A DNA stretch of 59,091 bases, taken from Pseudomonadota bacterium (lineage in GTDB: Bacteria; Pseudomonadota; Gammaproteobacteria; JAGOUN01). Location of the stretch: positions 18,073-77,163 of the forward strand of contig JAZKAS010000013.1 of assembly GCA_040389005.1 (NCBI GenBank), given 5' to 3'. The notes under the pieces were generated by a model. The model ran no database searches. It had not been told where the DNA came from and saw only the letters and a list, made by a program, of their open reading frames with translations. Both the position numbers and the translations under genes were made by a program. Each line of letters begins with the position of its first letter. Position 1 is the first letter of the stretch. Positions 3,340 through 31,108 of this stretch are shown in pieces.

Positions 3340-3855
3340 CTATTTTGTTTTATACAATGCTTCTAAGGTCGCTTTATCTAACACATGGCCTTTCATCGCT
3401 TTTAATAATTCATTCATCATAAAACCAGAGGGTAAATCGAGTTTTTTATCCAAAGCATACAACTCAATAGTGTACAAATGATCTTTATCCGGTGGCGCGC
3501 AACCACCGTAACGCGAAGCATCTTCTTTGCTAAGCTGATATTCTTTGGGAATAATGCCAGAGCCCCAACTATTCACGCCTTGTAATAAATTCATTTTTTC
3601 ACTGGCATTTTCCGGCAGTTCATTAAGTGTTGGGTCAATATTCGCCGCGAGCCAATGAATCCACGTAAATCCGCAAAAAGGAATCGCATCATGATCAACA
3701 AAGGTTAGTGCTAATGATTGTGTTCCTGGTGGCAAGTTATCCCACGCTAAATGAAACGAATAATTCGGCATAATATTTTTCAAAAACTGCGTGCCGTGAT
3801 GACCCATCTCATCTTTAAAATAACCATTAGTAATGCTGTTTGATTTGATTTTCAT
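3340..3855 (-). CDS. YbhB/YbcL family PEBP (Raf-kinase-inhibitor-like) protein
   Basis: Family-typical length and motifs (SP.L.W...P.GT.S.AL...D.DAP...F.HW...NI). Confidence 0.8.
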   Translation of the reverse strand: MKIKSNSITNGYFKDEMGHHGTQFLKNIMPNYSFHLAWDNLPPGTQSLALTFVDHDAIPFCGFTWIHWLAANIDPTLNELPENASEKMNLLQGVNSWGSGIIPKEYQLSKEDASRYGGCAPPDKDHLYTIELYALDKKLDLPSGFMMNELLKAMKGHVLDKATLEALYKTK

Positions 3856-3877
3856 ATTTTTACCTTACTCTGTTGGT

Positions 3878-4541
3878 TTATGACCATAATGCGGAAAAGG
3901 GTACGGCCCATAGATTTTCTCCCATAGAGCCCAAAAATTCACCTGAATATAGCACGATGCCGATAAAGGATCTATTTTTTGCAAGATTATTTCTAAACCA
4001 TTTTAAGTGTTTAAAATCAGAAATGCTAATAGTTGCGGCAGACTTTACTTCGATCCCTAAAAAAGCATGTTCATGGTTTTTAATTAAAAAATCAATTTAA
4101 AGCATGATCTAAAAAAGTAGGCAAAATACCTAAACGCTCTCCTTGCGACAATGGCCACAAGCGTATTTTCCTTATACGGCCCGCGAGCGATTCTTGCACG
4201 CCTGGTAAAGATTGAATGTTGCTTGACCCTGTTAATAGATATTGGCCTGGGCGAGTATTTTCATCAACCATGAGTTTGATGGCAGATAATAAATCAGGTG
4301 CACGTTGTATCTCATCGATGATATGCATTTTTCCAGCATGTTTAACAAATTCGTGAGGATCGTTTTGCGCAAATTGACGTGTCGCTAAGTGATCCAGCGT
4401 GCGATAAAGCGTATCGCTATTAACAAATTGCTTAGCTACGGTCGTTTTACCGAATTGTCGTGCTCCATTGAGCAAGACAACGCGCCGTGTTAATAAGGCT
4501 TGTTCAATTATCTTTTTTTGCCATCTTGAGTAAATCGCCAT
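3878..4541 (-). pseudogene. AAA_14/DUF4143 ATPase with internal deletion plus frameshift
   Basis: The 149-aa ORF (4092..4541) is only the N-terminal AAA_14 part (GARQFGKTT...IIDEIQ). A different frame at 3878..4090 encodes the family C-terminal end (IDFLIKNHEHAFLGIEVKSAATISISDFKHLKWF...GIVLYSGEFLGSMGENLWAVPFSALW). The middle of the protein is missing. Confidence 0.8.
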
Positions 4542-4613
4542 TTGTCTCTCTTAGCATACCCGCGATTTTTATAGTCAAATAATAAAATACTAATATAATC
4601 AATAAGATAAAAT

Positions 4614-5261
4614 TTAGAGAATCATTGTGCCTTTTTCGCTCGCGCAAATAACAACATCCGCACGGCGTTTTGCAAAAATGCCATTATCAACAACGCCGGG
4701 GAGTTGCTTGATTTTCATTTCCATCGCCAGGGGATCGGTTAAATCAAGATTATGGACATCGATAATAATATTGTTGTGATCGGTGATAAAATTTTCACGC
4801 CAGACAGGGTCGCCACCCATTTTCAATAATTCACGCGCAACTAATCCGCGCGCGAGTGGCAACACTTCCACTGCGACAGGAAATTTCCCAAGTACATCTA
4901 CTTGTTTTGATGCATCCACCATGCAAATAAATTGATTGCTTGCGCTTGCCAAAATTTTTTCTTTAGTCAGTGCGCCGCCGCCACCTTTAATCATACGTTT
5001 GTGCGCATCGATTTCATCCGCGCCATCAATGTAAATGGGCAACGTGCCGACATAATTCAAATCAACCACCGTAAACCCTAAAGCTTTCAGTTTTTTCGTG
5101 CTGCGTTCAGAGCTTGAAACCACCATATCTATTTTTGATTTGATAGTGGCGAGTTGATCGATAAAACATTCAACGGTGGATCCTGTGCCAATCCCGATAA
5201 CATTGTGTTTTTTGGCGTATTCAAGCGCTGCAATGGCAGCGTGTTGTTTTAATTCGGACAT
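4614..5261 (-). CDS. rpiA: Ribose-5-phosphate isomerase A
   Basis: Collinear with E. coli RpiA (GIGTGST, DGADE, KGGGGALT.EK, GVV..GIFA). Confidence 0.95.
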   Translation of the reverse strand: MSELKQHAAIAALEYAKKHNVIGIGTGSTVECFIDQLATIKSKIDMVVSSSERSTKKLKALGFTVVDLNYVGTLPIYIDGADEIDAHKRMIKGGGGALTKEKILASASNQFICMVDASKQVDVLGKFPVAVEVLPLARGLVARELLKMGGDPVWRENFITDHNNIIIDVHNLDLTDPLAMEMKIKQLPGVVDNGIFAKRRADVVICASEKGTMIL

Positions 5262-5396
5262 GAGGGGCTCCTGATTTTTCTATATCATATCGATACAAAA
5301 CAACGTGCGCAATGAAATCTGCTGACTACTGAAGGTTAGTTTAAGCAGAAGCAGCAATTATTGCGTATCCAGTCGGCCCTCGCTAGGGAAATTGTA

Positions 5397-5418
5397 GCAA
5401 CCTTAATTTTAAGGTTGC
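5397..5418 (-). terminator. Stem-loop downstream of hslU
   Basis: gcaacctta-attt-taaggttgc 9-bp stem directly after the hslU stop. There is no clear U-tract. Confidence 0.4.
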
Positions 5419-5429
5419 TCCTTTAAATG

Positions 5430-6824
5430 TTACAAAATATATCGACTTAAATCTTCATCCGCTGCCAACGCTTCTAACGCACGATTGACATAACCGACAT
5501 CAACATTTACGGTTTCACCGCCGCGATCACATGCTTCAAATGAAATTTCTTCGAGCAAACGTTCCATGATGGTATGTAATCGACGTGCGCCGATATTTTC
5601 GGTGCGTTCATTGACTTGCCACGCGACTTCAGCGAGTCGTTCAATTGCTTTTTTGGCAAATTTCAGTGTCACATTTTCAGCACCTAATAAAGCAGTATAT
5701 TGCTTTATTAAAGAGCCATTTGGTTCGGTGAGAATTCGCACGAAATCACCAACTGATAATGCTTTTAATTCTACGCGGATAGGCAAACGTCCTTGTAATT
5801 CTGGAATTAAATCAGAAGGTTTTGAAACATGAAACGCGCCGGAAGTAATAAATAAAATATAATCGGTTTTGATAACGCCATATTTTGTATTCACCGCACA
5901 ACCTTCAATCAGTGGCAGTAAATCACGTTGCACGCCTTCACGGGGAGATGTGTTGCCGCCGTGTCGATCAGAGCGTTGTGCAACTTTGTCAATTTCATCG
6001 ATAAATACAATACCGTTTTGTTCGACATTTTGAATTGCTTTTTGTCGTACGCGATCTTCATCGATGAGTTTTGTGGCTTCTTCATTTTCCAGTATGCGCT
6101 TAGCCACTTTAACCGTCATTTTTCGCGGTTTAACTTTTTCTTGGCTAACCGATTGAAACATGCTTTGTAATTGGTTGGTCATTTCTTCCATACCAGGAGG
6201 TGACATAATTTCGATGCCTACGGGAGATGCGGTGACTTTAATTTCGATTTCTGTTTCATCGAGTTCGCCATCACGTAATCGACGACGAAAATGTTTTCGT
6301 GTTTTATTTTCTTCAAGCGGCGCTTCTTCAACAGCGGGCTCATTTTTAAAGCCGCTTTTCGCCGGTGGTAACAACGCATCTAAAATTCTTTCTTCAGCAT
6401 TGGCTTCTGCTTGTGCTTTTACTTTTTGCATTTCGCTTTCACGCGTCATTTTAACAGCCATATCCGCAAGATCACGAATAATGGAATCAACATCGCGCCC
6501 AACATATCCGACCTCTGTAAATTTTGTCGCTTCTACTTTGATAAACGGAGCTTTAGCAAGTTTTGCCACACGACGCGCAATCTCTGTTTTACCCACGCCT
6601 GTTGGCCCGATCATGAGAATATTTTTCGGCATAATTTCATCACGCAAGCCTTCGGCTACTTGCATGCGTCTCCAGCGGTTTCGCAACGCAATTGCGACGG
6701 CGCGTTTTGCGTCCGCTTGTCCAATAATATGTTGATCGAGTTCGTGAACAATTTCACGTGGTGTCATTGGGATTTCGGCAACAGCAACAGGCTCAGAATG
6801 CGTTTGAGTTTCAATAGTTGACAT
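5430..6824 (-). CDS. hslU: ATP-dependent protease ATPase subunit HslU
   Basis: [19 protein letters not shown] Walker A, an I-domain insert, and IVFIDEIDK Walker B; 464 aa. Confidence 0.97.
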
Positions 6825-6850
6825 AATTTTTCGTCTCTTGGTAATTCTAA

Positions 6851-7390
6851 TTAATAGGATAATTCTTCAAATGAAAGGTTGTGATTCGTATAAACACAAA
6901 TATCAGCGGCGATATTGAGTGATTTTTCAACAATGCTTTTTGCGCTGAGTTTTGTGTTATCCAACAAGGCGCGCGCAGCCGATTGAGCAAACGCCCCGCC
7001 TGATCCGATGGCAATTAAGCCGTGTTCCGGCTCAATCACATCGCCATTACCGGTGATAATCAATGAAGCATCTTTATTGGCGACAGCTAGTAAAGCTTCG
7101 AGTCGTCTCAAGATTCGATCCGTTCGCCAATCTTTGGCAAGTTCAACGGCAGCGCGCACTAAATGACCATGATGCTGTTCAAGTTTGGCTTCAAAGCGCT
7201 CAAAAAGCGTAAAAGCATCGGCCGTACCCCCGGCAAACCCGGCAATGACTTGATCTTTATAAATGCGGCGTACTTTGCGCACATTGCCTTTCATAATGGT
7301 ATTACCCAAAGAGGCTTGACCGTCACCCCCAATGACAACACTTTTGTCACGACGTACACAGACAATCGTTGTTCCACGATATTGTTCCAA
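6851..7390 (-). CDS. hslV: ATP-dependent protease subunit HslV (TTG start, short pro-sequence before catalytic TTIV)
   Basis: GTTIVCVRR...[41 protein letters not shown] sits 6 nt before the TTG. Confidence 0.95.
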
Positions 7391-7423
7391 AATCAGCCCC
7401 TTGTTTTTAGCGAATTACGAGAT

Positions 7424-7451
7424 ATATGGGGAGGATCTGAAGCTTTTCAAG
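7424..7451 (-). promoter_or_regulatory. sigma32 (heat-shock) promoter of hslVU
   Basis: The minus strand reads CTTGAAA-13 nt-CCCCATATA, a near-perfect match to the RpoH consensus, about 30 nt upstream of the hslV start. Confidence 0.7.
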
Positions 7452-7566
7452 CACTCAGAACTTGGTTATTAAATGTGCAAAAATTGTTTGATTTTTTATT
7501 GAATATTGCAAAATCTCATCTATATTTAACCCACTATAAAAATAACAATCTTATGTAGAGAATTTT

Positions 7567-8334
7567 ATGACCAAAACTGCTCCATCTATTGCGTTTCCAT
7601 CTATCGAAACACCAGCAACAATAAGTATCAAGCTGCCCAAAAAAAGTTTTCAGGTAAACCCATGCTTAAATGAAGAAAAGCTCGAAGCACTTGGTCTGAG
7701 CATAGATAATTTGTTATACGGATTGCTACAGGTCTTAGGTTATTATGGGAAAATGACTGTTGATACACAAGAAGATGTGCTAGATAGATTATTAGCACCT
7801 TTTACAACTTCAATGAAAAACATACTTATGGCGCGAATCGAAAAACTCGCAGAACCAGATGTTTTTACCAAAGAAAATGCGGTAGGCATTTATAAGTCTA
7901 ATCAGACAGTTTTGTCAGAGTATTTGCTTGGGAGCAAAAATCTTTTTATGTTTTCAAATGGAGACTATTCTACCATCAATCCAAAAATGATAGCGAGTTA
8001 TGATGTTTCTGCGCAATTTGTTAAAGATATCAATGATTTTTATGAAGAGCTTGATAGTGTGATGGCAGACGCAGAGCCAGAAAAAATGGCTAATATAATT
8101 TCAGATACGATTTGCCAAAATATTATGTTGTTTCATTTGGGGACTATATTAATTCATTTTAGCTCTAAAAAATTTGATCAGTTTGTTAAAGAAAAAACAG
8201 TGGAACTGATAGCTTACTTAGATCAAAAAATGCTTACGCATACACAATCACATCATCTCAAAATAGGATCCATATTCTTAGACGCTGCATCTCCAACCTC
8301 AGTCGCTGATCGAAAGATGGAGTCGAAATTATAA
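7567..8334 (+). CDS. Hypothetical soluble protein (255 aa), no recognisable domain
   Basis: Long ORF with codon usage like its neighbours. No motif was recognised. Confidence 0.5.
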   Translation: MTKTAPSIAFPSIETPATISIKLPKKSFQVNPCLNEEKLEALGLSIDNLLYGLLQVLGYYGKMTVDTQEDVLDRLLAPFTTSMKNILMARIEKLAEPDVFTKENAVGIYKSNQTVLSEYLLGSKNLFMFSNGDYSTINPKMIASYDVSAQFVKDINDFYEELDSVMADAEPEKMANIISDTICQNIMLFHLGTILIHFSSKKFDQFVKEKTVELIAYLDQKMLTHTQSHHLKIGSIFLDAASPTSVADRKMESKL

Positions 8335-8417
8335 AAAAACAGTTATTTTTTCAGCTTTGTTAAACATTCTATCAACTCACACATAATATTTTATGTTTAT
8401 AACAATGTTGAATTCAA

Positions 8418-8515
8418 TTAACCCACTGCCGTATCCGGCGTTGCATCAACCACCGGCACGCCGCTTGGTGCGTTTGCTGCCGCCGCGACTGCTTCTGTTT
8501 CAGCTTGGTCAGGTG
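8418..8515. repeat. Direct repeat copy A (orphan copy of the SPOR-gene 3' end; att-like)
   Basis: 93 of 98 positions are identical to 15751..15848 at an offset of 7333 bp. It keeps the reading frame and a stop codon (TAA instead of TGA). Confidence 0.9.
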
Positions 8516-8533
8516 CAAAAAAAAACATTTTCT

Positions 8534-9643
8534 TTATTTTGCGCATGAGAAAGGAGTTGAAATACTATGATCTACTGGCGCTGATAAAAACATTGAAGAA
8601 ACAGCAGTTTTTTTATAAGGCGTCGAAATAGCAATCGCTAAAAGCTGTTGTACTTTAAGTCCTGTTGCAATATTAGCCAGTCTATTATCAATGTTTTTTG
8701 CTATTATTTGTTGTATCCATGCTTTATTTTGTAAATAAAACGAATCTGACCAGAAGGGCACCTCTGTTTTTGGGTCTGGTATATGTATCATTGAGTCAGT
8801 TTCAATAGGAATCAGATTGGTAGAGGTGCTTAATTGCAATGTAAGCGCATGAGGCGTTGAATTACTAGAATATTTTATCTCTCCATCTTCGAAAACAATG
8901 TGAAGATGAAGCCCTACCTCCTCATCTTCTGCTGACTTACTGGCTTGTATTGCAAAACTTGCTCCATTGTCAGTAATTCCTGCCATTGTGCAGTGATCAT
9001 CTTCAGTAAGCGTTACTCCTTCACGTATTGGATTTTTTATTTCAAGAGAAGCCTCAAGAGAGTTTTCTGCTATGTTGTGGCTAGTGAAATAAGAGACCAT
9101 ATCTAATAAATGACTTCCTAAGTCGCCACAAGCCCCGCCGCTTTTATTTTGCGAGCCATCATCCCTCCACCCAATCGTTTTTTTTGTGCGAGCACTATTT
9201 CTATTTAAAGCTAAATTAAGATGCAAAATCTTACCAAGATTCTCTTTTTTGCTTATTTCAGTGATGGCAAGTAGTGCATGATTAAATCTATAATTAAAAG
9301 CAACAGCACTTAGTGGGGGAGAAATTTGGTAAAAAGCAAGCGCATCTTCATAAGAAGATGACAAGGGTTTTTCGCATAACACAGGAATTGCGTTTACCTC
9401 CACAATACTTTTTAAAATTTCAAGATGCGTATTATTGGGCGTGGCAATGATGACTCCATCAGAATTTTCAACAACCATTCTAATTGAGTCGGCTATGCGG
9501 ATTTTAGAGAAGTCCATGGCCAGTTTTTCGGCATTTGCAGAGTTTCTAGCATGAAGGTAAACGTATTCTACGTCACTTATGTGTTGCAACGCTTTTAAGT
9601 GGGCAATAGCCACCATACCACTGCCAATTATACCGATATTCAT
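8534..9643 (-). CDS. Gfo/Idh/MocA family oxidoreductase
   Basis: N-terminal Rossmann motif IGIIGSGMVA, an EKPL motif, and GDLGSHLLD. It is a paralog of 10431..11441. Confidence 0.85.
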   Translation of the reverse strand: MNIGIIGSGMVAIAHLKALQHISDVEYVYLHARNSANAEKLAMDFSKIRIADSIRMVVENSDGVIIATPNNTHLEILKSIVEVNAIPVLCEKPLSSSYEDALAFYQISPPLSAVAFNYRFNHALLAITEISKKENLGKILHLNLALNRNSARTKKTIGWRDDGSQNKSGGACGDLGSHLLDMVSYFTSHNIAENSLEASLEIKNPIREGVTLTEDDHCTMAGITDNGASFAIQASKSAEDEEVGLHLHIVFEDGEIKYSSNSTPHALTLQLSTSTNLIPIETDSMIHIPDPKTEVPFWSDSFYLQNKAWIQQIIAKNIDNRLANIATGLKVQQLLAIAISTPYKKTAVSSMFLSAPVDHSISTPFSCAK

Positions 9644-9803
9644 ATTAACCCCAGCCTACATAACTTAGCAAAAATATTTCTGTTTTAGTACCAGCATTGA
9701 TTAGCAAGGTCAAGCTATTAAATATTTGACAAATGAAATTTTATACCATAATATGAATTTAAATACCGTTAATTGAATTTTTAATACTGTGGGGCGAGTT
9801 ATA

Positions 9804-10418
9804 ATGAAAAACATTATTTTTGATTTTGGAGCTGTTTTAATTGATTGGAATCCTAATAAAGTCTACTCGTCACATTTCAAAACGGATGAGGAAATGGAGA
9901 GGTTCTATGAAGAAACCCAGATACAAGTTTTAAATAAGCAAATTGATAAAGGCGTTCCCTTTGATGCAATATTGAACGATTTAAGCTCAAATTTTCCTCA
10001 CCATAGTGTGCCAATAAAATTATGGAAAACTGCTTGGCACAGAATGATTGGCGAACCAATCTGGGGAAGTATATCGCTATTAAAAGAGCTTAAAGAAAAA
10101 AATTATCCATTATATGGGTTAACTAATTGGTCGTCTGAGACTTTTCCGTATGTCTATTATAAATATGATTTTTTTCATGATTTTATTGATATTGTTGTTT
10201 CAGGGCGTGAGAAAACTATTAAACCAGAAGAAAAAATATATAAAATTTGTTTAGAAAGAAATAATTTAGCTCCAGAATCGTGCATTTTTATTGATGATAA
10301 TAAGAGCAATGTTGAAATGGCCATAAATTTAGGAATGGCGGGGATAGTTTTTGTAAATCCTGAGCAATTAAAGCAATCTTTAGTTGAGTTAGGGATAGAT
10401 TTAGATACAAAGCTTTAA
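9804..10418 (+). CDS. HAD-superfamily hydrolase (subfamily IA-like)
   Basis: Motif I FDFGAVL, motif II LTN, and motif IV FIDDN. The start is taken at MKNIIFDFG. Confidence 0.85.
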   Translation: MKNIIFDFGAVLIDWNPNKVYSSHFKTDEEMERFYEETQIQVLNKQIDKGVPFDAILNDLSSNFPHHSVPIKLWKTAWHRMIGEPIWGSISLLKELKEKNYPLYGLTNWSSETFPYVYYKYDFFHDFIDIVVSGREKTIKPEEKIYKICLERNNLAPESCIFIDDNKSNVEMAINLGMAGIVFVNPEQLKQSLVELGIDLDTKL

Positions 10419-10430
10419 GTGGAGAGTGGT

Positions 10431-11441
10431 ATGAAAATAGGAATAATTGGGTGCGGTGGTGTGGCATCAGCACATATACGTGCATTACAGTGCATTGACG
10501 CAGTATCTGGAATATATGGCTATGATATGGATGCCTCTCGCCCAGAAGCATTAGAAAAATTATTTCCTCGATTTCAGGCGATGGAATCATTCTCTGATAT
10601 GATTACATCAGTAGATGGAGTTATTATTTCTACTCCAAATAATACTCACCTTAAAGTCCTAAAAGATATAATATCCATTAAAAATATCCCTGTCTTATCT
10701 GAAAAACCGTTGGCTTCTTCCGTAGAAGACGCCAATGAATTTATGAAGTTAGCGCACTCAGATAGTGCGATAAATTTTAATTATAGATTTAATCCTGTTA
10801 TTTCACTTATTTTAAAAATAAAAAAAGATTATGAACTTGGTGAGCTTGTTTTTGTTGATGTGGCCTTTAATAAGAATAGTGCTTTAAGCAAGAAAACGTT
10901 AAGCTGGCGAGATCAAGAAAATCAAAATAATAGCAGCGGTGCGTTTGGAGATTTAGGTAGTCATTTATTTGATTTAATTCATTACCTTGCCGGGTCTACT
11001 ATTAATAAAAATTCATTGAAAATTTCTATTGGAAAAAGAGTGAAAACACGCGCTGGAGTTGATCTGACAGTAGATGATAATTGTATTGTTACTGGCATGA
11101 CAGTAGGTGAAACTTTATTTAAAATGCAGGCGAGCAAGAGTTCTCCAGAGGAAGAGCTAGGATTTCATGTATATTTAATTTGCCAGCATGGAGAAATAAA
11201 ATATTCATCTTCTAATTCAGGTAAAATAAAAGTCACTTATATAAACCAAGTACGACATGATTTTGTAGAGGTAGATTTGAGAAAGTTAATAGATGATCCT
11301 TCAGGGGAAATACCTTATTGGTCGGATTCTTTTTATTTTCAAAACTTAGCTTGGACCAATACACTTAGAGGACGACGCTCTCTGGAAGTTGCAACTATAC
11401 AAGACGGTTGTTACATTCAGGAGCTTCTTTCAGTTATATAG
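10431..11441 (+). CDS. Gfo/Idh/MocA family oxidoreductase (paralog)
   Basis: IGIIGCGGVA, SEKPL, GDLGSHLFD, and a shared C-terminal block (QASKS..EE.G.H......GEIKYSS) with 8534..9643. Confidence 0.85.
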   Translation: MKIGIIGCGGVASAHIRALQCIDAVSGIYGYDMDASRPEALEKLFPRFQAMESFSDMITSVDGVIISTPNNTHLKVLKDIISIKNIPVLSEKPLASSVEDANEFMKLAHSDSAINFNYRFNPVISLILKIKKDYELGELVFVDVAFNKNSALSKKTLSWRDQENQNNSSGAFGDLGSHLFDLIHYLAGSTINKNSLKISIGKRVKTRAGVDLTVDDNCIVTGMTVGETLFKMQASKSSPEEELGFHVYLICQHGEIKYSSSNSGKIKVTYINQVRHDFVEVDLRKLIDDPSGEIPYWSDSFYFQNLAWTNTLRGRRSLEVATIQDGCYIQELLSVI

Positions 11442-11463
11442 TTTTTTGAAAAAGGAGAAAATA

Positions 11464-11775
11464 ATGAAATCAGAGCAATATTCTGTTTTAGCAGTATTTA
11501 AAGCTAGACCAGGGAAGGAAGAAGAGCTAAAGCGTGCATTGCAAGAGATGGTTGAGCCAACCTTAGCAGAAGAAGGCTGCATTAATTATGACCTGCACCA
11601 GTCTGTCGATAACAAAGCACAGTTTATGTTCTACGAAAATTGGAGCAATCAAGCAGCGCATTCTCAGCATAATGTTGCCGCTCATATTGAGGCGTGGAGA
11701 AAAAAAAAAGACCAATTGCTTGAAGAAAATTGTGTTGTGACTGCTTGGAAAATGATTAACATTAATGATAAATAG
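11464..11775 (+). CDS. ABM (antibiotic-biosynthesis-monooxygenase-like) domain protein
   Basis: About 100 aa with a ferredoxin-like ABM pattern (VLAVFKARPGKEEEL...EEGCI.Y.LHQ....FMFYE.W....AH..H). Confidence 0.7.
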   Translation: MKSEQYSVLAVFKARPGKEEELKRALQEMVEPTLAEEGCINYDLHQSVDNKAQFMFYENWSNQAAHSQHNVAAHIEAWRKKKDQLLEENCVVTAWKMININDK

Positions 11776-11786
11776 AGGTTTTTTTT

Positions 11787-13184
11787 ATGAATTCATCTTC
11801 ACAAATATTGAAGCCTAGTGGATCAAAACATAAATTGTTTGTTTATATTGTTGGACTGACGGCAGCTTTGTCCGGTTTGTTATTTGGTATTGATGCAGGC
11901 GTTATTTCAGGCGCATTAAGTTTTATTAAAAATGATTTTAATTTAACGACCGGAAGTACTGAAATGGTTGTTACGGCAATTTTAATTGGTGCAATCATTG
12001 GAGCTCTTGCGAGCAGCTTTATTTCTAGAAAATATGGCCGTCATTTTTCTTTAGTAGTCAGTGCTGCAATTTTTAGTATTGGCGCATTATTGTCGGCTAC
12101 GGCAATCAATGTTAATATGCTAATTCTAGTACGTATATTTTTAGGAATTGGCTTAGGAATTGCGTCTTCTACAGCACCTGTCTATTTATCGGAAATGGCG
12201 CCAAAAAGTATCCGAGGTCGCTTAATTACTGTATATCAATTCATGATTACGCTTGGAATTTTAATTGCTTATCTTAGCGATGCATTTCTTATTTCATATT
12301 CATATAGCTGGCGATGGATGCTTGGGATTACTTTTTTCCCTGCTTTTTTAATGTTTTTATGTGTTTTAACGTTACCTAAGTCACCAAGATGGCTCGTACT
12401 TTTAGGCAAAGTTAGAGAGGCGCGTAGTGTTCTTTCTAGAATTAGAAATCATGACGAGATTGAAGATGAGCTAGCTGAAATTAGAAACACATTTAATCAG
12501 TCTGCGCCTATGGCGAGTCTTTTGAAAAGCCGGCAATTTATGAAAGTACTCTGTCTGGGAATGATATTGCAAATTATTCAACAGATGTCAGGAATCAATG
12601 CGGTTATATATTATGCGCCAAAAATATTTCAATATGCGGGATTTTCTACAGATACTCAACAAATGTGGGCAACCGTTTTGGTTGGATTAGTCAATATGCT
12701 AGTAACTATTGTTTCGATTGCATATATCGATAAGTTAGGAAGAAAGCCTATTTTATATTTTGGATTGTTACTTACCTCTACCAGTATGTTATGTCTTGGA
12801 TATTTGTTCCATATAGGATTGACGACAGTTTTCGCACAATATTTTGCGGTTGCATTGGTATTGATTTTTGTTTGTGGATTCGCAACAAGTCTGGGTCCAA
12901 TTATTTGGATACTCTGCGCAGAAATATATCCTTTGCGTGTTCGAGAAATTGGAATGACAGTCGCAACTGTAACTAATTGGGTATTTAATGCTATTGTTGG
13001 TGGATTCTTTTTGACTGTTGTTAACTCAATAGGAATAGCATCAACGTTTGTCGGGCTATCGATACTGAGTTATTTAAGTCTTATTTTTATCATTGGTTTC
13101 TGCCCAGAAACCAAGGGTGTTTCACTAGAAAAAATTGAAAGCAATTTAATGGCAGGAAATTCTTGCCGAAAATTGGGTGGTTAA
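11787..13184 (+). CDS. Sugar-porter family MFS transporter (inositol/hexose:H+ symporter-like)
   Basis: GRK/GRH loop, PKSPRWL, PETKGVSLEKIE, 12 hydrophobic segments; 465 aa. Confidence 0.9.
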   Translation: MNSSSQILKPSGSKHKLFVYIVGLTAALSGLLFGIDAGVISGALSFIKNDFNLTTGSTEMVVTAILIGAIIGALASSFISRKYGRHFSLVVSAAIFSIGALLSATAINVNMLILVRIFLGIGLGIASSTAPVYLSEMAPKSIRGRLITVYQFMITLGILIAYLSDAFLISYSYSWRWMLGITFFPAFLMFLCVLTLPKSPRWLVLLGKVREARSVLSRIRNHDEIEDELAEIRNTFNQSAPMASLLKSRQFMKVLCLGMILQIIQQMSGINAVIYYAPKIFQYAGFSTDTQQMWATVLVGLVNMLVTIVSIAYIDKLGRKPILYFGLLLTSTSMLCLGYLFHIGLTTVFAQYFAVALVLIFVCGFATSLGPIIWILCAEIYPLRVREIGMTVATVTNWVFNAIVGGFFLTVVNSIGIASTFVGLSILSYLSLIFIIGFCPETKGVSLEKIESNLMAGNSCRKLGG

Positions 13185-13852
13185 GCACTGAATTTAAATG
13201 GATTAAAACTGGTTTTCGCGTCGTTTATAGTAACATTTTCCGTATTTTTTAAGATGAAAACTATAAGCTGCGCTGGCCAGACGGATATGCTCAAATAAAT
13301 ATATTGGACTAAAAGTGTTGAGCCAAGAGCGTATAGGTAATCATGGGCGCTTATTATTCCTAGCCTTCCAACTCCCATTCCAATAGCCATAGTTATCGTC
13401 TCTCCGATTGCGGAAGAGCAAAAACTTCTAAGCCAAAAACAACGCCCTTTTAAAAAAATCTTCCACTTTGAAAGTATGTAGATATTTAAAAATTGACCAA
13501 CAAATATTCCTAAAACCCCACCCAAAACCAGCTGAATACTATGCCCCAAAATATAATTATAAGCCATTTGATACTGAAAAGACGGTGGCGATGGAAGATG
13601 TATGCCGAAGGTAAGAATACAAGAAAATAACGTATCGCAAAACAATGCGATCCAAATTAGTTGACGAGCAATTTTATAACCATAAATTTCAGTAGTAACA
13701 TCTCCAAAGATGTAAATAAGGGGAAAGACAATGATAGATCCAAAAAGTGTAAATGGACCAATGGAAACTATTTTATAGGCTAGCGGTACCGTGGCCAATA
13801 AAGCGGTGATATAGAGTGAGGTTATAAGCAGCAAGTATTTATTTTTTTGCAT
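13181..13852 (-). CDS. YhhQ/VUT family queuosine-precursor transporter
   Basis: Polytopic 223-aa protein with the family motif FP.IYIFGDV.TEIYGYK.AR. Confidence 0.75.
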   Translation of the reverse strand: MQKNKYLLLITSLYITALLATVPLAYKIVSIGPFTLFGSIIVFPLIYIFGDVTTEIYGYKIARQLIWIALFCDTLFSCILTFGIHLPSPPSFQYQMAYNYILGHSIQLVLGGVLGIFVGQFLNIYILSKWKIFLKGRCFWLRSFCSSAIGETITMAIGMGVGRLGIISAHDYLYALGSTLLVQYIYLSISVWPAQLIVFILKNTENVTINDAKTSFNPFKFSA

Positions 13853-13872
13853 TATATGATCCTTAGAATAAA

Positions 13873-14610
13873 TTAATTTTGAATCTTTTCATTTTTTATT
13901 TGTTCATTTGCTGTAGTATAACCAATAGCATAAGCATCTTCGCTATTTATTGATTTGATTAGTTCAGGGTTTTCAAACACTTCTTTTACACTTTTCTCTA
14001 TTTCTTGTCCGGTTTCGTTGTTTTTTAATTTTAAGTAAATTTTATTTGTTCCTGATTTTATCACTTGAGCAATAAGTTTTAGCGTTGAGGCTTTTTCTTC
14101 TGGTTTGTAATGAATTAAAATCGCCTCTTTTTTTATTTGTTCATTCGCTGTTACGTAGCCTATTGTATAAGCATCTTCTGAATCTAGCGTTTTAATTAAT
14201 TCTGGGCTTCTAAAGATCTCTGATGTGTCTTTTTCTATTTCTTCGCCAGTTTTATCATGCTTTAACTTAAATACTATTTTATTTGTACTTGATTTTAATG
14301 ATTGCCCAATCATTTGACGCTTTGGCTCTTTTTTATTTTCACAAGCGAGATAAGTAAGTAAGCGAATATCTTTTTTTGAAAATGATTCTGTTAGTGTATC
14401 ATCAGCTAAAATAATTTCAGGCAATTTTTTAAAAATTAGCCGTTTTCTTCTTAAATGAACTTCCGCTTCAAATTTACCTTGTTTATTTTTTTTATAATCA
14501 ACAACAGTGAAAGGAGCTTCAGTTTGATCGCGACAATCGCGTCTAAATTCAGCATACATATTAAGAATCCAACTGATATAAGCGGATAATTTATTATGTT
14601 CAGTATTCAC
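13873..14610 (-). CDS. Hypothetical protein with internal tandem repeats (about 79-aa period)
   Basis: Two clear copies of NKI.(F/L)KLK...TG(E/Q)EIEK...E(I/V)F..PELIK...SEDAY.IGY.TANEQIK, plus one degenerate N-terminal copy. Confidence 0.6.
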   Translation of the reverse strand: MNTEHNKLSAYISWILNMYAEFRRDCRDQTEAPFTVVDYKKNKQGKFEAEVHLRRKRLIFKKLPEIILADDTLTESFSKKDIRLLTYLACENKKEPKRQMIGQSLKSSTNKIVFKLKHDKTGEEIEKDTSEIFRSPELIKTLDSEDAYTIGYVTANEQIKKEAILIHYKPEEKASTLKLIAQVIKSGTNKIYLKLKNNETGQEIEKSVKEVFENPELIKSINSEDAYAIGYTTANEQIKNEKIQN

Positions 14611-14667
14611 TTTTTATTCCTGCCTATATTTGGTCTGAATAGTAACATAATGGTAATAAATAATGCA

Positions 14668-15309
14668 TTATTTTTTAATTCTTGCTTCTACAAAAATACC
14701 AACAATCACGTCTTCATTTGGATGGAGTTGTTCTATGCCAATTGGCAGCAAATCTTCATGAAGAGGTCTAATAAATTGATTGGCTCCGTTGAAAATAATC
14801 ATGCGAAAATAAGCTTTATCATGTTTTTTGATATATACAACAACCATGTCGCGATCGGATGGTTTTTTTATGGTATTTACGATAACTTCAGTTTTTTCTG
14901 GAAACTGAGGATACATGGATTGATCAGTTAATTGCACTACAAATGACTTATCATCAATATCTGCGGTAGTAAATGTTGTCCCCATTCCATTTTGAATAGT
15001 AAGCTTTCCTGATTTTGCAAAATTAATCACGTCATCCCAAGAATAAACAGGTATTTCTTTCCATCCTTTTAGTGTTTCACTCAAGGGTTTTTCTTCAGAA
15101 ATTTCTTGAATAGGCTTATGACCAAAAAGTTGAGCTTCAGAAATTTTAAAAAAGCCCAGGAGAGCGTTAATGGTATCTTGTCGTGGGTGTGAGCTTGTGC
15201 CTGATACCAAGTGGTGTAAGGTGGTTTGAGGTATTCCAGACAATCTCGCAACTTCAGCAGTTTTCAAGTTACGCTTAAACATTAAATTTTTTAGAACTTG
15301 ATCAATCAT
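14668..15309 (-). CDS. CI/LexA-like repressor (XRE HTH plus S24 peptidase domain)
   Basis: N-terminal HTH (LKTAEVARLSGIPQTTLHHLVSG). C-terminal S24 with a DQSMYPQF Ser motif and a downstream Lys. Confidence 0.85.
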   Translation of the reverse strand: MIDQVLKNLMFKRNLKTAEVARLSGIPQTTLHHLVSGTSSHPRQDTINALLGFFKISEAQLFGHKPIQEISEEKPLSETLKGWKEIPVYSWDDVINFAKSGKLTIQNGMGTTFTTADIDDKSFVVQLTDQSMYPQFPEKTEVIVNTIKKPSDRDMVVVYIKKHDKAYFRMIIFNGANQFIRPLHEDLLPIGIEQLHPNEDVIVGIFVEARIKK

Positions 15310-15555
15310 TAGTTATTTCTTGTTTTGAAGCCAGTGATTGTTTTTAAGCTGAATTTTAGCATAAAAAAAGCATACTACAAATTAAAAATTCATTTTAAGG
15401 ATAAAAATTTCAAATAGAGACTCTAGAATGTTCTCTATAGGTCAAACCAAGGGATATTTTTAAATTTTCGCTATCTATGTATAAGTTAAAAATCTACAAA
15501 AAATGTAACTAATTATTAGTTCAAAATTTTTTTATCGGAGATTTAAACAGAAAAA

Positions 15556-15744
15556 TTGGCCAGCAAAATAAAAACACTGGATTGGCCAATGGCACGACAA
15601 GATGTGATTCGCTTTATTCACCCCGAGCATCAAGCGACGTTGAAGCTGTGGGATGTGGATTTTTTTATGAGCGAGATTGAGAAAATGCAACGGTATTTGC
15701 CAGAAACGGGCGATTGCTGTTTATTTGCAAAAAATTGCATTTAA
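15556..15744 (+). CDS. Small ORF or possible gene remnant at the island edge
   Basis: 62 codons with a TTG start and no SD seen. Its composition is closer to the core genome. Function unknown. Confidence 0.2.
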   Translation: MASKIKTLDWPMARQDVIRFIHPEHQATLKLWDVDFFMSEIEKMQRYLPETGDCCLFAKNCI

Positions 15745-15750
15745 ACAGCA

Positions 15751-15848
15751 TCAACCCACTGCCGTATCCGGCGTTGCATCAACCACCGGCACGTCGCTTG
15801 GTGCGCTTGCTGCCGCCGCAACCGCTTCTGTTTCAGCTTGGTCAGGTG
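15751..15848. repeat. Direct repeat copy B (the 3' end of the SPOR gene in use)
   Basis: See copy A. It encodes the C-terminal tail ...TPDQAETEAVAAAASAPSDVPVVDATPDTAVG. Confidence 0.9.
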
Positions 15849-16455
15849 TGGCATTCGCAATCGGAGGATCAACATGGAAAATATAACTGCTGATATTCAT
15901 CTTCTTTAACTCTTGTTGACGCGCCACCGCATTTTCTTTAGTAGTGAAGGGCCCGAGCACAATCACAAACAAATCATGATCGGTTTTGGTTGATTTGCGC
16001 TGCGTGATAGCAACATCAAGCCCCATGAGTTGTAATTTATCCAAATAAGCACTCGCATCTCGCATATTGTAATAGAGCATGAGTTGCAACCAATAACCGG
16101 GTTGTTCGTCTGGCGGTGCAGTACTCGATGCTGGATCAGGCACGTTAATTTTCGGCAATAACGTATAAAATTCGTAATCAACTGGCTCTTCTTTGGCTTC
16201 AACGACAGGCGCTTTATTCACAGCTTTTTTAGGAGATGTGGCTTTTGCATCGACAACAGGTGGTAAAAGTGATGTCGGTATTTTAGGTTGATGATAATAA
16301 AAGTACCCAGCAACGCCGGAAGCGATTACTAATAAAATAACAATAATTACAAATATGCCGCGTATACTCGAGCCAGAAGCTCCTTTTTTACGCTTTTTTG
16401 AAGCACCTTTTTGACTATGGTTTTGGTTGTATCGTTTTGCGTAGTCTCTTGGCAT
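15751..16455 (-). CDS. SPOR domain-containing cell-division protein (DedD/FtsN-like)
   Basis: Basic N-terminus, one TM segment, a Pro-rich linker and a C-terminal SPOR fold (WLQL....A..Y...L...G.....Q.......F.V.LGPF....A). It lies downstream of argS, as in many gammaproteobacteria. Confidence 0.85.
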   Translation of the reverse strand: MPRDYAKRYNQNHSQKGASKKRKKGASGSSIRGIFVIIVILLVIASGVAGYFYYHQPKIPTSLLPPVVDAKATSPKKAVNKAPVVEAKEEPVDYEFYTLLPKINVPDPASSTAPPDEQPGYWLQLMLYYNMRDASAYLDKLQLMGLDVAITQRKSTKTDHDLFVIVLGPFTTKENAVARQQELKKMNISSYIFHVDPPIANATPDQAETEAVAAAASAPSDVPVVDATPDTAVG

Positions 16456-18302: not shown

Positions 18303-18701
18303 TTAAATCAATAAGAAAAACCCTCCCGCAAGTGCGACATTCGTGACAAAAATAACTGTTTTTATATGCTTTTCTTCAGGAGTGGCACGCCAAAAATCTT
18401 GAAAAAGACAAGAGGCGCCGATAAAAAATAAACCGAGTAAAAAAGCAAAAAATGGTGTGTAAATGTGAAAAAGTATGCTAAGTGCGCCGCAAAGTTTTAA
18501 GGCAACCGCAGCGGTAAATGCCCAAGAAGGTTTGGGTATCTTTTTTTTCGCTAAGAGTGTAAGAAGGTAAGGGCGATCTCCAATATCCAATTTGACTAAC
18601 CACAACAGCATGATTCCAAGAAGTATTCGGCCAGCAATTTCCATGTTCTTTATCCAACGTTTAAAAATCATATTGTTCCATAATAATTTCGTATAATTCA
18701 A
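18303..18701 (-). CDS. DoxX family membrane protein
   Basis: Four hydrophobic segments with a DoxX-like pattern. The true start may be the internal Met (MEIAGRILLG). Confidence 0.7.
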   Translation of the reverse strand: MNYTKLLWNNMIFKRWIKNMEIAGRILLGIMLLWLVKLDIGDRPYLLTLLAKKKIPKPSWAFTAAVALKLCGALSILFHIYTPFFAFLLGLFFIGASCLFQDFWRATPEEKHIKTVIFVTNVALAGGFFLLI

Positions 18702-18717
18702 TTAATTTTTAGGATAC

Positions 18718-18746
18718 TTGCTTGCTATAAATATATAGCTTATACT
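18718..18746 (+). promoter_or_regulatory. sigma70-type promoter with a palindromic operator for the TA operon
   Basis: TTGCTT, then 17 nt, then TATACT. The spacer contains the palindrome GCTATA-AATA-TATAGC (18724..18739). Confidence 0.55.
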
Positions 18747-18770
18747 ATACCTATATATCAGGAGATGATT

Positions 18771-18983
18771 ATGTTAGCGATACGATTGCCCAACGAGATT
18801 GAAAAACGACTTGATGTCCTAGCACAAAAAACCGGGCGGACAAAAACCTACTATGTGCGTGAAGCAATTCTTGAGCAGCTGGATGATCTTGAAGATATAT
18901 ATCTTGCCTTAGACAGATTGGAAAAACCTGCAAAGCGTTGGTCTTTAGAAGAAATGGAGAAAGAACTTGATTTGGAAGGTTGA
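18771..18983 (+). CDS. Ribbon-helix-helix antitoxin (RelB/ParD-type)
   Basis: RHH N-terminus (LAIRLPNEIEKRLDVLAQKTGRTKTYYVREAI) that overlaps the toxin gene. Confidence 0.85.
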   Translation: MLAIRLPNEIEKRLDVLAQKTGRTKTYYVREAILEQLDDLEDIYLALDRLEKPAKRWSLEEMEKELDLEG

Positions 18984-19233
18984 TTTCGATGATCGAGCGA
19001 AAAAAGAGTTTAAAAAGCTAGATAAAAAACTTCAAAAAGATATTCTAAATTATTTGCGTGAACGCGTTGCGAGTAATACGGATCCGCGACGTTTTGGCAA
19101 ACCACTTTCTTATGACAAACATGGTTTGTGGCGTTATCGTGTGCAAGATATTCGCATCATCTGTCGTATTGAAGATGATGAGCTATTTATTTTAGTCGTG
19201 CGAGTTGGTCATCGAAAAGCGATTTATCATTAA
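18967..19233 (+). CDS. RelE/ParE family toxin
   Basis: 88 aa with the pattern W.V.F...A.KE.KKLD...Q..I...L......PR..GK.L......LWRYRV.D.RIIC.I.D..L.I.V..VGHR; TTG start. Confidence 0.85.
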   Translation: MIWKVDFDDRAKKEFKKLDKKLQKDILNYLRERVASNTDPRRFGKPLSYDKHGLWRYRVQDIRIICRIEDDELFILVVRVGHRKAIYH

Positions 19234-19235
19234 TC

Positions 19236-20471
19236 ATGACCATGAATAAATTTCTTCTTAATCCCTTGTTCGATGGTCTGCAAGAAATGCTAGCCGAAGA
19301 GGATTATTGTCCGTCATTAACGAGTGAAGAAAAAACGATTCACAAGCACGCGAAACAGTTTTTGTTAAGTTATCGCGGCAGTCTCGATACGTTCAATTCT
19401 TATCGTCGTGAAATTGAACGTTATTTACAATGGTGCCAACTTATCGCAAAGAAATCCATATTGGATATTCGTCGAGAAGATTTCGAAAATTTTTTAAGCT
19501 TTTGCCAAGATCCACCCGAGTCTTGGATTGCTACCCGTGTTGAAAAACGTTTTATGATGAGCGGCGGTGAACGCATTCCGAATCCTGAATGGAAACCCTT
19601 TGTCGTTAAAATCACCAAGGCCGCAACAAAAAATGGCGGCAGTCCTAAAAAAGAAAATTATGAGCTTTCAGAAAAAGCGTTTAAATCTTTATTCGCGATT
19701 ATTAGTAGTTTTTATAATTTTCTCATTCAAGAAGAAGCGACAAATGTGAATCCTGTTTTACTCATTCGACAAAAAAGTCGTTATATTCGCAAACACCAAA
19801 CGGCACCAACCATTCGACGATTGTCAGAATTACAATGGGGCTATGTGATTGAAACTGCGGAAATCATGGCGAATGAAAATCCGCAACACAAACGCACTTT
19901 GTTTATGATGAATTTATTATATGGCATGTATTTGCGAATTTCAGAACTTGCCGCAACGCCGCGCTGGACCCCGACGATGGGGGATTTTCATCGAGATTCT
20001 GAAGGGCGTTGGTGGTTTTTGACCGTCGGTAAAGGTAATAAAGAACGAAAAATTACCGTGAGCCCGGTAATGTTAGAAGCGCTGAAACAATATCGAATGT
20101 CATTGGGGCTTTCTTCGTTGCCATCGCCACAAGAAAAAACGCCGCTTATTTCAAAACATAATGATGGAAAATCCATTAGCAGTACGCGTTATATTCGTGA
20201 AATTGTGCAAACCTGTTTTGATCGTGCCGGTGAACGTTTACGCGCCGATAATCAAATCGAAGAGGCCGAACAACTCATGGCCGCAACCGTGCATTGGTTA
20301 CGCCATACCGGTATTTCGGAAGATGTGAAAATTCGCCCGCGTGAACATGTGCGTGATGATGCCGGCCATAGCTCGGGTAGTATTACCGATAAATATATTG
20401 ATGTGGAATTACACAAACGCCATGAATCCGGTAAACAGAAGCGGATTAGACCAGAATTTCTCGAAACATAA
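19236..20471 (+). CDS. Tyrosine site-specific recombinase/integrase
   Basis: The catalytic set is visible: RISEL, GKGNKER, HWLRHT, GHSS and TDKYI. Confidence 0.9.
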   Translation: MTMNKFLLNPLFDGLQEMLAEEDYCPSLTSEEKTIHKHAKQFLLSYRGSLDTFNSYRREIERYLQWCQLIAKKSILDIRREDFENFLSFCQDPPESWIATRVEKRFMMSGGERIPNPEWKPFVVKITKAATKNGGSPKKENYELSEKAFKSLFAIISSFYNFLIQEEATNVNPVLLIRQKSRYIRKHQTAPTIRRLSELQWGYVIETAEIMANENPQHKRTLFMMNLLYGMYLRISELAATPRWTPTMGDFHRDSEGRWWFLTVGKGNKERKITVSPVMLEALKQYRMSLGLSSLPSPQEKTPLISKHNDGKSISSTRYIREIVQTCFDRAGERLRADNQIEEAEQLMAATVHWLRHTGISEDVKIRPREHVRDDAGHSSGSITDKYIDVELHKRHESGKQKRIRPEFLET

Positions 20472-20482
20472 GAGATGCGAAT

Positions 20483-30385: not shown

Positions 30386-31108
30386 CAAGCCACGAATGAT
30401 ATCGGCATTCGTGTTGCTAGCTGCTTGTCCCAGTGCGCTAAATTGTTCTGATAATGATGTTGAGCTATCAAATTCAACGGCTACAATGCGTGTTTGAAAA
30501 CGTTCCCAGCGATAAGTGTTGCAGAGCAATAGTAATTGAAGATCAGTTAGATTGGTCATGGAAGATCGTGGTTTTGCAAGTTGAGGGTCAATAGATTCTT
30601 TGCGATCAAAATACTGCAAATCAAGTACTACAGCGATATTATTGGGCAGTGGCTTAGCTGAGGAATTGGGGGCGGATTCAAGTGTTAGCAATTCAGTGCT
30701 GTTGCCAAACTCAGAATCGAGCAATGCTTGAGCGGCATCTCCTCGTATTTTTCCAACGCGAAAGAGGTTTGCACGTAAAACAAGATTCGCTTCATCAAGA
30801 TTTTTAACTACTTTGAAAGATTTTTCTTGTAAGCTTTGTGTTAACCAAGGTTGAATATCAAAAGCATCCGTTCCTGAGTCATTTTGAATTGAGATATACA
30901 CGGTGCGTTCTTCTTTAGGAATCGGCGTGAGATAGATAAATGAACTTGCGCGTGTTTTTACTTTCAGCGGTTGAGCGTTAATGCTAATGTCAGATTCGTT
31001 GACTGTGGTCGGCGACGTGGGTTTAGATTTAGGCGGTGTTTGGCATGCAACCAACAAGCCCGCGCAAAGTGAAAGACCCAATATTTGCAGAGAGTATTTT
31101 TTTAACAT
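30380..31108 (-). CDS. TraT-like outer-membrane lipoprotein
   Basis: Lipobox LLVAC. The blocks KVKT....IYL.P....RTVY.SI.N.S and FQTRIV resemble TraT (EVKTQMSETIWLEP..ERTVFLQIKNTS ... YQTRVV). Confidence 0.55.
   Translation of the reverse strand: MLKKYSLQILGLSLCAGLLVACQTPPKSKPTSPTTVNESDISINAQPLKVKTRASSFIYLTPIPKEERTVYISIQNDSGTDAFDIQPWLTQSLQEKSFKVVKNLDEANLVLRANLFRVGKIRGDAAQALLDSEFGNSTELLTLESAPNSSAKPLPNNIAVVLDLQYFDRKESIDPQLAKPRSSMTNLTDLQLLLLCNTYRWERFQTRIVAVEFDSSTSLSEQFSALGQAASNTNADIIRGLS

Follow-up and report, generated by a model that had tools for sequence, protein, structure and literature searches.

An integrase-less accessory islet bounded by a duplicated 3′ end of a predicted FtsN-like gene in an uncultured Legionellales bacterium

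How does a bacterial gene come to have two 3′ ends, one in use and one lying more than 7 kb away? We examined this question in a Pseudomonadota bacterium (JAGOUN01), using 59,091 nt of contig JAZKAS010000013.1 (positions 18,073 to 77,163), a stretch referred to here as the window and the source of all coordinates that carry no other label. In this window a gene for an FtsN-like protein with a SPOR domain ends in a 98-bp segment that is found again downstream, and an accessory islet of eight genes separates the two copies. The host is an uncultured Legionellales bacterium, a relative of Legionella. We firmly infer that the islet arrived joined to a SPOR tail of its own, which is about 5% diverged, and that the resident tail was pushed aside and not replaced.

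The following features define the locus, given in the direction in which the SPOR gene is read.

15751..16455, minus strand: SPOR-domain, FtsN-like gene, 234 aa (Pfam SPOR E 5e-12, residues 119-192)
15750..15848, minus strand: repeat copy B, the 3′ end in use, TPDQAETEAVAAAASAPSDVPVVDATPDTAVG, stop TGA (last 32 codons and stop of the SPOR open reading frame [ORF])
8417..8515, minus strand: repeat copy A, the orphan 3′ end, in frame, APDQAETEAVAAAANAPSGVPVVDATPDTAVG, stop TAA (sequence comparison, unitigs)
7567..8334, plus strand: unknown 255-aa gene, low in GC, outside the repeats and convergent with the orphan tail (no family match)
7424..7451, minus strand: sigma-32-type hslVU promoter, CTTGAAA-N13-CCCCATAT (conserved upstream of hslV in relatives)

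The two copies agree at 94 of 99 positions (8417-8515 versus 15750-15848), or at 93 of 98 over 8418-8515 and 15751-15848 with an offset of 7333 bp; the latter count had been given in an earlier note on this DNA and was reproduced by a recount and by blastn (E 6.7e-42). The mismatches fall at 8419, 8461, 8473, 8487, and 8490, leaving exact blocks of 41 bp (8420-8460) and 25 bp (8491-8515). The edges of the repeat are abrupt, one of them 2 nt past the stop codon and the other at 8515/15848, and its GC content is 0.61. A search of the 59-kb window returned these two copies only, and the repeat blocks were not matched in viral contigs. Codon comparison bears out the view that copy B is the end of the SPOR gene in use and copy A an in-frame orphan: the copies differ by two synonymous changes (GCA/GCG and GTC/GTT), two nonsynonymous changes (N/S and G/D), and the stop codon.

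Copy A lies 18 bp downstream of the stop codon of the last islet gene, which encodes an oxidoreductase designated GfoA; on its other side, the 255-aa gene stops 83 bp away. Its surroundings are recovered in Logan unitigs of run SRR26324622, which correspond to window positions 3395-8449 and 8431-10030 at 100% identity and stop exactly at the last copy-A-specific 31-mers on both sides of the shared 41-bp block. Because unitigs built at k = 31 break in the way that a true two-copy repeat predicts, both copy-A junctions are real sequence.

To place the duplication in context, we used a tblastn map of 12 related loci (numbered with the prefix L). Relatives of the SPOR protein are all metagenomic and 55 to 75% identical, and the named records among them are Legionellales. 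Alignment-based scans with this protein found three genomic and two metagenomic loci, and a single-protein scan of one-genome-per-species contigs gave no matches. The map yields the ground plan PGK-PK-FBA-(variable)-recombinase-(variable)-argS-SPOR-hslV-hslU-rpiA, and the order argS-SPOR-hslV-hslU is kept in six relatives with SPOR proteins in the same identity range. Escherichia coli K-12 shows the identical adjacency ftsN-hslV-hslU; the SPOR gene is therefore the positional counterpart of ftsN. Its product has an N-terminal basic stretch and one hydrophobic helix, a predicted membrane anchor, followed by the C-terminal SPOR domain. Domain, anchor, and position upstream of hslVU together characterize the target gene, as predicted from its sequence, as FtsN-like.

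Measured against the ground plan of the family, the islet is an insertion: the window holds 8.3 kb of extra low-GC DNA between the SPOR stop and the hslVU promoter, the point at which conserved core sequence resumes. This promoter is conserved in L001, L005, L006, L009, and L010 and is present in a looser version in L007. The earlier note had looked to relatives for an empty site, and such sites exist. SPOR is followed directly by hslV, with a spacer of 55 to 200 bp, in L001/2, L005, L006, and L007, and directly by a convergent homolog of the 255-aa gene in L003/L004 (28% identity, with the upstream region also similar); these relatives are distant (SPOR 55 to 75% identical), and the exact attB allele was not seen in them. 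The shortest spacers measure 55 to 60 bp (L005, 10616-10673; L006, 10640-10700) and contain only the sigma-32-type promoter, whose -35 region begins a few nucleotides from the SPOR stop codon. The arrangement in L003/L004 is the one that copy A keeps with the 255-aa gene, and by this comparison the 255-aa gene is likely to be the original downstream neighbor of SPOR. In L001, a 30-nt inverted repeat (90% complementary; 10633-10743) extends across the SPOR stop codon and the spacer and is probably a long terminator hairpin.

The accessory islet spans 8516-15749 (7.2 kb), and all eight of its genes are intact. Its genes and noncoding features, continuing from copy B toward copy A, are as follows.

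15310..15749, no strand: 441-bp spacer between the regulator gene and copy B, with a palindrome, a hairpin, and a 62-codon ORF
15591-15575, minus strand: terminator-like hairpin, about 160 nt after the SPOR stop
15556-15744, plus strand: unsupported 62-codon ORF in the spacer (no family match)
14668..15309, minus strand: helix-turn-helix (HTH; XRE) and peptidase S24 regulator of the LexA/CI/LvrR type (Pfam HTH_26 and Peptidase_S24; PHROG transcriptional repressor)
13873..14610, minus strand: unknown 245-aa protein, conserved partner of the S24 regulator (no family match)
13181..13852, minus strand: predicted queuosine-precursor transporter of the VUT/YhhQ family (Pfam Vut_1, TIGR00697 above cutoff)
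11787..13184, plus strand: predicted sugar porter of the major facilitator superfamily (MFS) (Sugar_tr E 9e-117; TIGR00879 above cutoff)
11461..11775, plus strand: antibiotic-biosynthesis-monooxygenase-fold (ABM) protein (Pfam ABM E 1e-20)
10419..11441, plus strand: Gfo/Idh/MocA oxidoreductase B, a paralog of A (family matches)
9789..10418, plus strand: HAD-IA phosphatase (family matches)
8534..9643, minus strand: Gfo/Idh/MocA oxidoreductase A (GfoA), intact and full length, the last gene of the islet, adjoining copy A (family matches)

From these family assignments, the cargo is predicted to be a small set for sugar uptake and oxidation, together with a transporter of queuosine precursors and a LexA/CI-type regulator whose gene is paired with an unknown one. 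The genes for the porter, the ABM protein, oxidoreductase B, and the phosphatase are all four opposite in strand to the rest. Oxidoreductases A and B are paralogs, which accounts for the inverted similarity of 9277-9310 to 10764-10797. One GfoA homolog (P0033) is 88% identical and equal in length, and GfoA homologs occur in scattered, uninformative genomic contexts. The hairpin at 15591-15575 suggests that the islet also supplies the terminator of the operon. The islet is compositionally foreign. In the composition profile that the earlier note had proposed, its GC content (0.34) is below that of the flanks (0.41 to 0.42), the surroundings of the 255-aa gene are at 0.33, and GC at third codon positions ranges from 0.18 to 0.36; the tetranucleotide deviation is mild, at only about 1 standard deviation from the window mean. 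An Rfam scan returned only a tRNA-Met.

A LexA/CI-like repressor had been described at the edge next to copy B. The regulator is indeed present there; its tie to phage did not hold up, as it has no viral or phage matches. Only two homologs were found in 5.8 billion proteins, and the clearer of these (L011/L012) is followed by a 164-aa homolog of the 245-aa protein (52% identical) and then by an MFS transporter. The 245-aa protein is made of three related units of about 60 to 70 aa, its L011/L012 homolog has one fewer, and the protein always follows an S24 regulator. Solved structures match only the HTH part of the regulator. The regulator is 24% identical to an S24 gene product encoded beside tra genes of an L. 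pneumophila plasmid, and the VUT protein is 32% identical to the product of a VUT gene that adjoins the S24 gene on a Legionella plasmid. Regulator and partner may serve to regulate a transporter and not prophage immunity. The perfect 15-bp palindrome noted earlier in the region upstream of the regulator (AACTAATTATTAGTT, 7+1+7) is present in the spacer at 15507-15521; near-matches with up to 3 mismatches occur in the window at chance level (10 found versus 8.5 expected), and by its sequence and position the palindrome is a candidate operator only.

Which enzyme could have moved the islet? The earlier note had pointed to a tyrosine integrase gene 3.4 kb away, and this gene has a different identity.

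19236..20471, plus strand: XerL ortholog, a predicted chromosome-dimer resolvase, not part of the islet (similarity, synteny)

Its product is 52% identical over the full length (400 aa, E 1e-150) to Lpg1867 of Legionella pneumophila (sequence taken from Table S3 of PMC9765430), the experimentally characterized single Xer recombinase of Legionellales (Y387F; PMC9765430). The catalytic Y387 (...ITDKYIDV) aligns with Y387 of Lpg1867 (...TTDRYIDI). The best plasmid match is CBUA0010 of Coxiella burnetii QpH1 (56% identity, 98% coverage), which is taken as a XerL ortholog. In nine relatives, xerL lies between FBA and argS; it is 81 to 92% identical, conserved like argS, and found there with or without an insertion after SPOR. 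Similarity and synteny mark the gene at 19236 as a vertically inherited core gene, the XerL ortholog. Since XerL is encoded by a core gene that is syntenic irrespective of insertions, it is no evidence for a nearby mobile element.

The surroundings of xerL have features of their own. The gene lies between two variable spots (18303-21937 in the window; also in L001, L004-L007, L010, L019, and L020), which is unusual for a housekeeping Xer gene. Its flanking cargo consists of ParD/ParE in the window and L006, HigB/HTH in L001/L020, and genes for unknown proteins of 670 to 730 aa in others, and the window also has a DoxX gene and a gene with Schlafen/AlbA_2 and HATPase_c_4 domains beside xerL. 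Palindrome scans for a dif-like dyad near xerL, and for a plasmid dif beside the C. burnetii xerL, gave nothing consistent.

The related loci show that the site itself is prone to change. Downstream of SPOR, HicA/HicB genes are found in L009 (2620-3202) and L020 (6933-7518) and a gene for a TcdA/TcdB-type DXD glycosyltransferase in L010 (10206-13276) and L019 (8037-10287), accompanied in both of the latter by one or two paralogous 230-aa genes with an effector-like look. L008 and L021 have other content or a rearrangement after SPOR. There are no flanking repeats at the HicA/HicB or glycosyltransferase loci (L009, L010, L019, and L020). The SPOR-hslV spacer is a recurrent hotspot for accessory genes in this clade. 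The region is also mosaic: between 4614 and 25901 of the window, XerL, argS, and SPOR are nearest to L001/L009, and PK, FBA, and hslU are nearest to L005/L020. This pattern, read from sequence similarity, suggests old inter-lineage recombination with breakpoints at the variable spacers. In L003 (1-8433), L004 (1-8042), and L008 (8410-10125), the block of xerL, argS, and SPOR is turned around with respect to PK/PGK or FBA, with one breakpoint directly after the SPOR stop.

How, then, did the islet enter? The reading that we favor, at a little short of an even chance, is Campbell-type integration, in which a single crossover takes a circle into the chromosome within the last 100 bp or so of the SPOR gene. 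A circle carrying a mimic of the SPOR tail as its attachment region would have recombined with the resident gene at that position, presumably in a site-specific manner. The SPOR gene would then end in the incoming tail (copy B), followed by islet-supplied sequence, and the resident tail (copy A) would be shifted by 7.3 kb, still beside the 255-aa gene and the hslVU heat-shock promoter. Because the islet is without its own recombinase, it would be a stranded remnant of the cis-mobilizable type or would have been moved by an enzyme encoded elsewhere. Several considerations lead us to favor this integration. The geometry matches that of prophage e14 in icd/icdC of E. coli; the ends of the islet are clean, with an intact GfoA gene 18 bp from the repeat, which is improbable for a random illegitimate joint; and the regulator and the VUT protein are distantly akin to a pair encoded beside tra genes on Legionella plasmids. 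On the same side count the abrupt edges of the repeat, the empty sites in relatives, the low GC and GC3 of the islet, the Legionella islands with repeats of a gene 3′ end, and the unitigs that bear out both copy-A junctions.

Several observations weigh against integration of this type. When the eight ORFs were compared with Pfam, PHROGs, and NCBIfam, no recombinase, excisionase, transfer, or phage structural gene was found in the islet, in agreement with the earlier statement that the interval lacks an integrase; phage structural, replication, and lysis genes are all absent from it, and its sole PHROG match is of the repressor type. The noncoding gaps of the islet measure only 199, 145, and 441 bp and leave no space for a decayed recombinase, and the 59-kb window encodes no recombinase besides XerL. 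Within the repeat there is no dyad with 7-bp arms such as a recombinase core or a dif-like site would have. The regulator was not matched in viral contigs, the islet has no relatives at the DNA level in plasmid or phage collections, and the regulator-partner pair, which elsewhere adjoins an MFS transporter, is possibly an ordinary regulatory module. A second copy of the locus's own SPOR tail occurs in 0 of the 12 related loci, so there is no sign of an element family that targets the SPOR 3′ end; nine of the 12 carry other accessory genes or a rearrangement after SPOR. The islet does not qualify as a self-mobile integrative element or a prophage, as it has no recombinase and no phage genes. 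The earlier reading of the locus as site-specific integration with a replacement 3′ end thus stands in part: an incoming tail displaced the resident one, the insertion is foreign, and the geometry is that of e14, but site-specific recombination is a presumption, and none of the 12 related loci has a duplicated tail.

A serious rival, and one we consider quite possible if less probable than Campbell-type integration, dispenses with a recombinase and with any mobile element. In homology-facilitated illegitimate recombination (HFIR), one end of a linear fragment taken up by transformation or conjugation recombines homologously and the other is joined illegitimately. Here, a fragment from a sister strain carrying argS/SPOR and the cargo would have been anchored by homology in argS/SPOR, its far end would have been joined 98 bp before the stop of the recipient SPOR gene, and the last 98 bp of the recipient gene would survive as the orphan. 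Such an event is an established outcome of natural transformation, reportedly described by de Vries and Wackernagel in 2002, and it fits an islet with no mobility gene. It also fits a spacer that behaves as a general hotspot, with content that differs by lineage and comes without repeats (HicAB in L009/L020, the glycosyltransferase in L010/L019, and L003/4, L008, and L021), and the switch of nearest neighbor across the locus (L001/L009 versus L005/L020), a mark of past inter-lineage recombination. An end of homology at the stop codon is natural in this case because the lineages differ immediately after it. However, the joint must then fall in the 18 bp that follow an intact gene, roughly a one-in-ten coincidence at such a coding density, and the lineages involved in the mosaic have unalignable SPOR tails, which makes those events older than the 5%-diverged duplication.

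The remaining explanations are far less probable. An event in situ, either a local duplication or a long target duplication at insertion with tails that were identical at first and have diverged since, would account for two copies in direct orientation that differ by substitutions only. We regard it as improbable: known transposition duplications are of a few base pairs, as against 98 bp here; a long residence would be needed for the 98-bp tails to gain five substitutions, yet the eight islet genes are intact; and the foreign DNA between the copies is left without explanation. Capture by XerL, in the manner of the integrative mobile elements exploiting Xer (IMEX) and as for LME-1 at dif in L. 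pneumophila, has in its favor an intact xerL 3.4 kb away and the known ability of XerL to integrate an element with a dif mimic (PMC9765430). Legionella dif, however, is an AT-rich site of about 30 bp with perfect 10-bp dyad arms (PMC9765430), whereas the repeat is 61% GC and without a 7-bp-arm dyad; the minimal spacers of L005/L006 hold only the hslVU promoter and thus no dif; and the position of xerL in all relatives is independent of insertions. We therefore rejected both membership of the islet in the IMEX group and a dif in the SPOR-hslV spacer, and we give capture by XerL very little probability. About as doubtful is an assembly artifact, a chimeric join of two strains over a shared tail. 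The contig is metagenome assembled, and the 41-bp exact block could confuse small k-mers; against this, the copies differ at five positions, separate unitigs reproduce both copy-A flanks and break as a true repeat should, and the junction of GfoA, 18 bp, and tail is physically required whichever way the block is threaded. The artifact, which the earlier note had named as a possible source of both copies, was not borne out by the SRR26324622 unitigs. We also consider it improbable, to a degree similar to the event in situ, that the islet is a live, recombinase-less hitchhiker moved by an enzyme encoded elsewhere (which could be XerL acting on a non-dif site), with the SPOR-hslVU spacer as a dedicated, integron-platform-like capture site for toxin-antitoxin and effector-like cargo.

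With Campbell-type integration as the favored route, the islet is a clean, verifiable example, from an uncultured Legionellales lineage, of how an acquisition can be read from the 3′ end of a gene. The locus also corrects an easy misannotation, since the "phage integrase" near the island is a predicted housekeeping XerL. As a recurrent landing place for toxin-antitoxin genes and effector-like glycosyltransferase genes, the junction between the FtsN-like gene and hslVU is useful for effector mining. Should the islet prove to move without encoding a recombinase, the Legionellales mobilome would gain a trans-mobilized element that targets a protein gene.

Elsewhere in the window, several genes stand apart from the islet. 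A eukaryote-type mitochondrial carrier protein is encoded at 44403-45254 on the minus strand (Mito_carr E 1e-34); mitochondrial carrier genes are of a kind known as translocated effectors in Legionella. Two large plus-strand ORFs have no Pfam family (34292-38095, 1267 aa; 48822-50807, 661 aa), and the former lies within the strongest tetranucleotide deviation of the window. An AAA_14 ATPase ORF of 149 aa (4092-4541, minus strand) may be the remnant of a truncated gene in a further variable spot, as relatives have ATPase_2/AAA_14 genes of 320 to 490 aa near rpiA. A chromosomal TraT-like lipoprotein gene (30380-31108, minus strand) lies beside lipopolysaccharide core genes (two heptosyltransferases and a Kdo/WaaP kinase fusion).

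Among known systems, chromosomal hotspots of gene gain between conserved core genes, reportedly surveyed by Oliveira et al. in 2017, resemble this locus in that one spot between SPOR and hslV holds accessory genes that differ by lineage, mostly without the hallmarks of mobile elements. Turnover by double crossover leaves no duplicated flank, however, and here a 98-bp orphan remains. Closer in structure are the cis-mobilizable elements (CIMEs), att-bounded islands without an integrase, known from Streptococcus thermophilus, where they accompany ICESt1/ICESt3 at the fda 3′ end. CIMEs share with the islet the direct repeats of a protein gene 3′ end, the lack of recombination and transfer modules, and a content of cargo only, but they belong to another taxonomic group, and no cognate integrative and conjugative element (ICE) or integrase for the SPOR site was found in the window or the 12 related loci.

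Within the same order as the host, Legionella islands are bounded by imperfect 37- to 48-bp repeats of a gene 3′ end (PMC3864950). The lvrRABC islands and ICEs share with the islet these imperfect direct repeats and a LexA-type regulator (lvrR class, COG1974) at the edge, and on conjugative plasmids of Legionella the islet S24 and VUT genes have distant relatives that form a pair beside tra genes. Known islands of this type differ in that they are at tRNA genes, are 30 to 60 kb long, and carry an integrase and a type IV secretion system; the islet is without lvrA, lvrB, and lvrC (csrA), and its regulator similarity is only 24%. In the lvr module, lvrR (COG1974, LexA type) is followed by lvrA (288 to 304 aa), lvrB, and lvrC (CsrA) (PMC3864950), whereas the next genes in the islet encode the unrelated 245-aa protein and VUT, with no CsrA; membership in this module was rejected, as was the VUT protein as a candidate lvrA, which is 288 to 304 aa long and without membrane helices. 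The islet recalls LME-1 and XerL-dif integration in that the gene for an XerL ortholog is close by and that XerL is able to insert foreign DNA. It differs from them in the dif-like site, missing from both repeat and locus, and in the insertion-independent position of xerL.

A proven case of this geometry is e14 of E. coli. There, icdC differs from the end of icd at 12 of 165 bp, and the two sequences cease to match 1 nt beyond the stop codon (PMC13626634). Unlike the islet, which has no recombinase or phage gene, e14, which is known to excise, encodes intE and xisE together with a repressor and retains remnants of phage structural genes. In both cases, DNA inserted near the end of a protein-coding gene provides that gene with a new 3′ end, and the original one persists, in frame but orphaned, beyond the insert. 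Neither pair of copies is identical (12 mismatches over 165 bp in e14, 5 over 98 bp in the islet), and in both the homology ends 1 to 2 nt after the stop. The locus is thus a known kind of insertion scar, with a structure that works like that of e14 in icd/icdC and resembles integrase-less, att-bounded islands.

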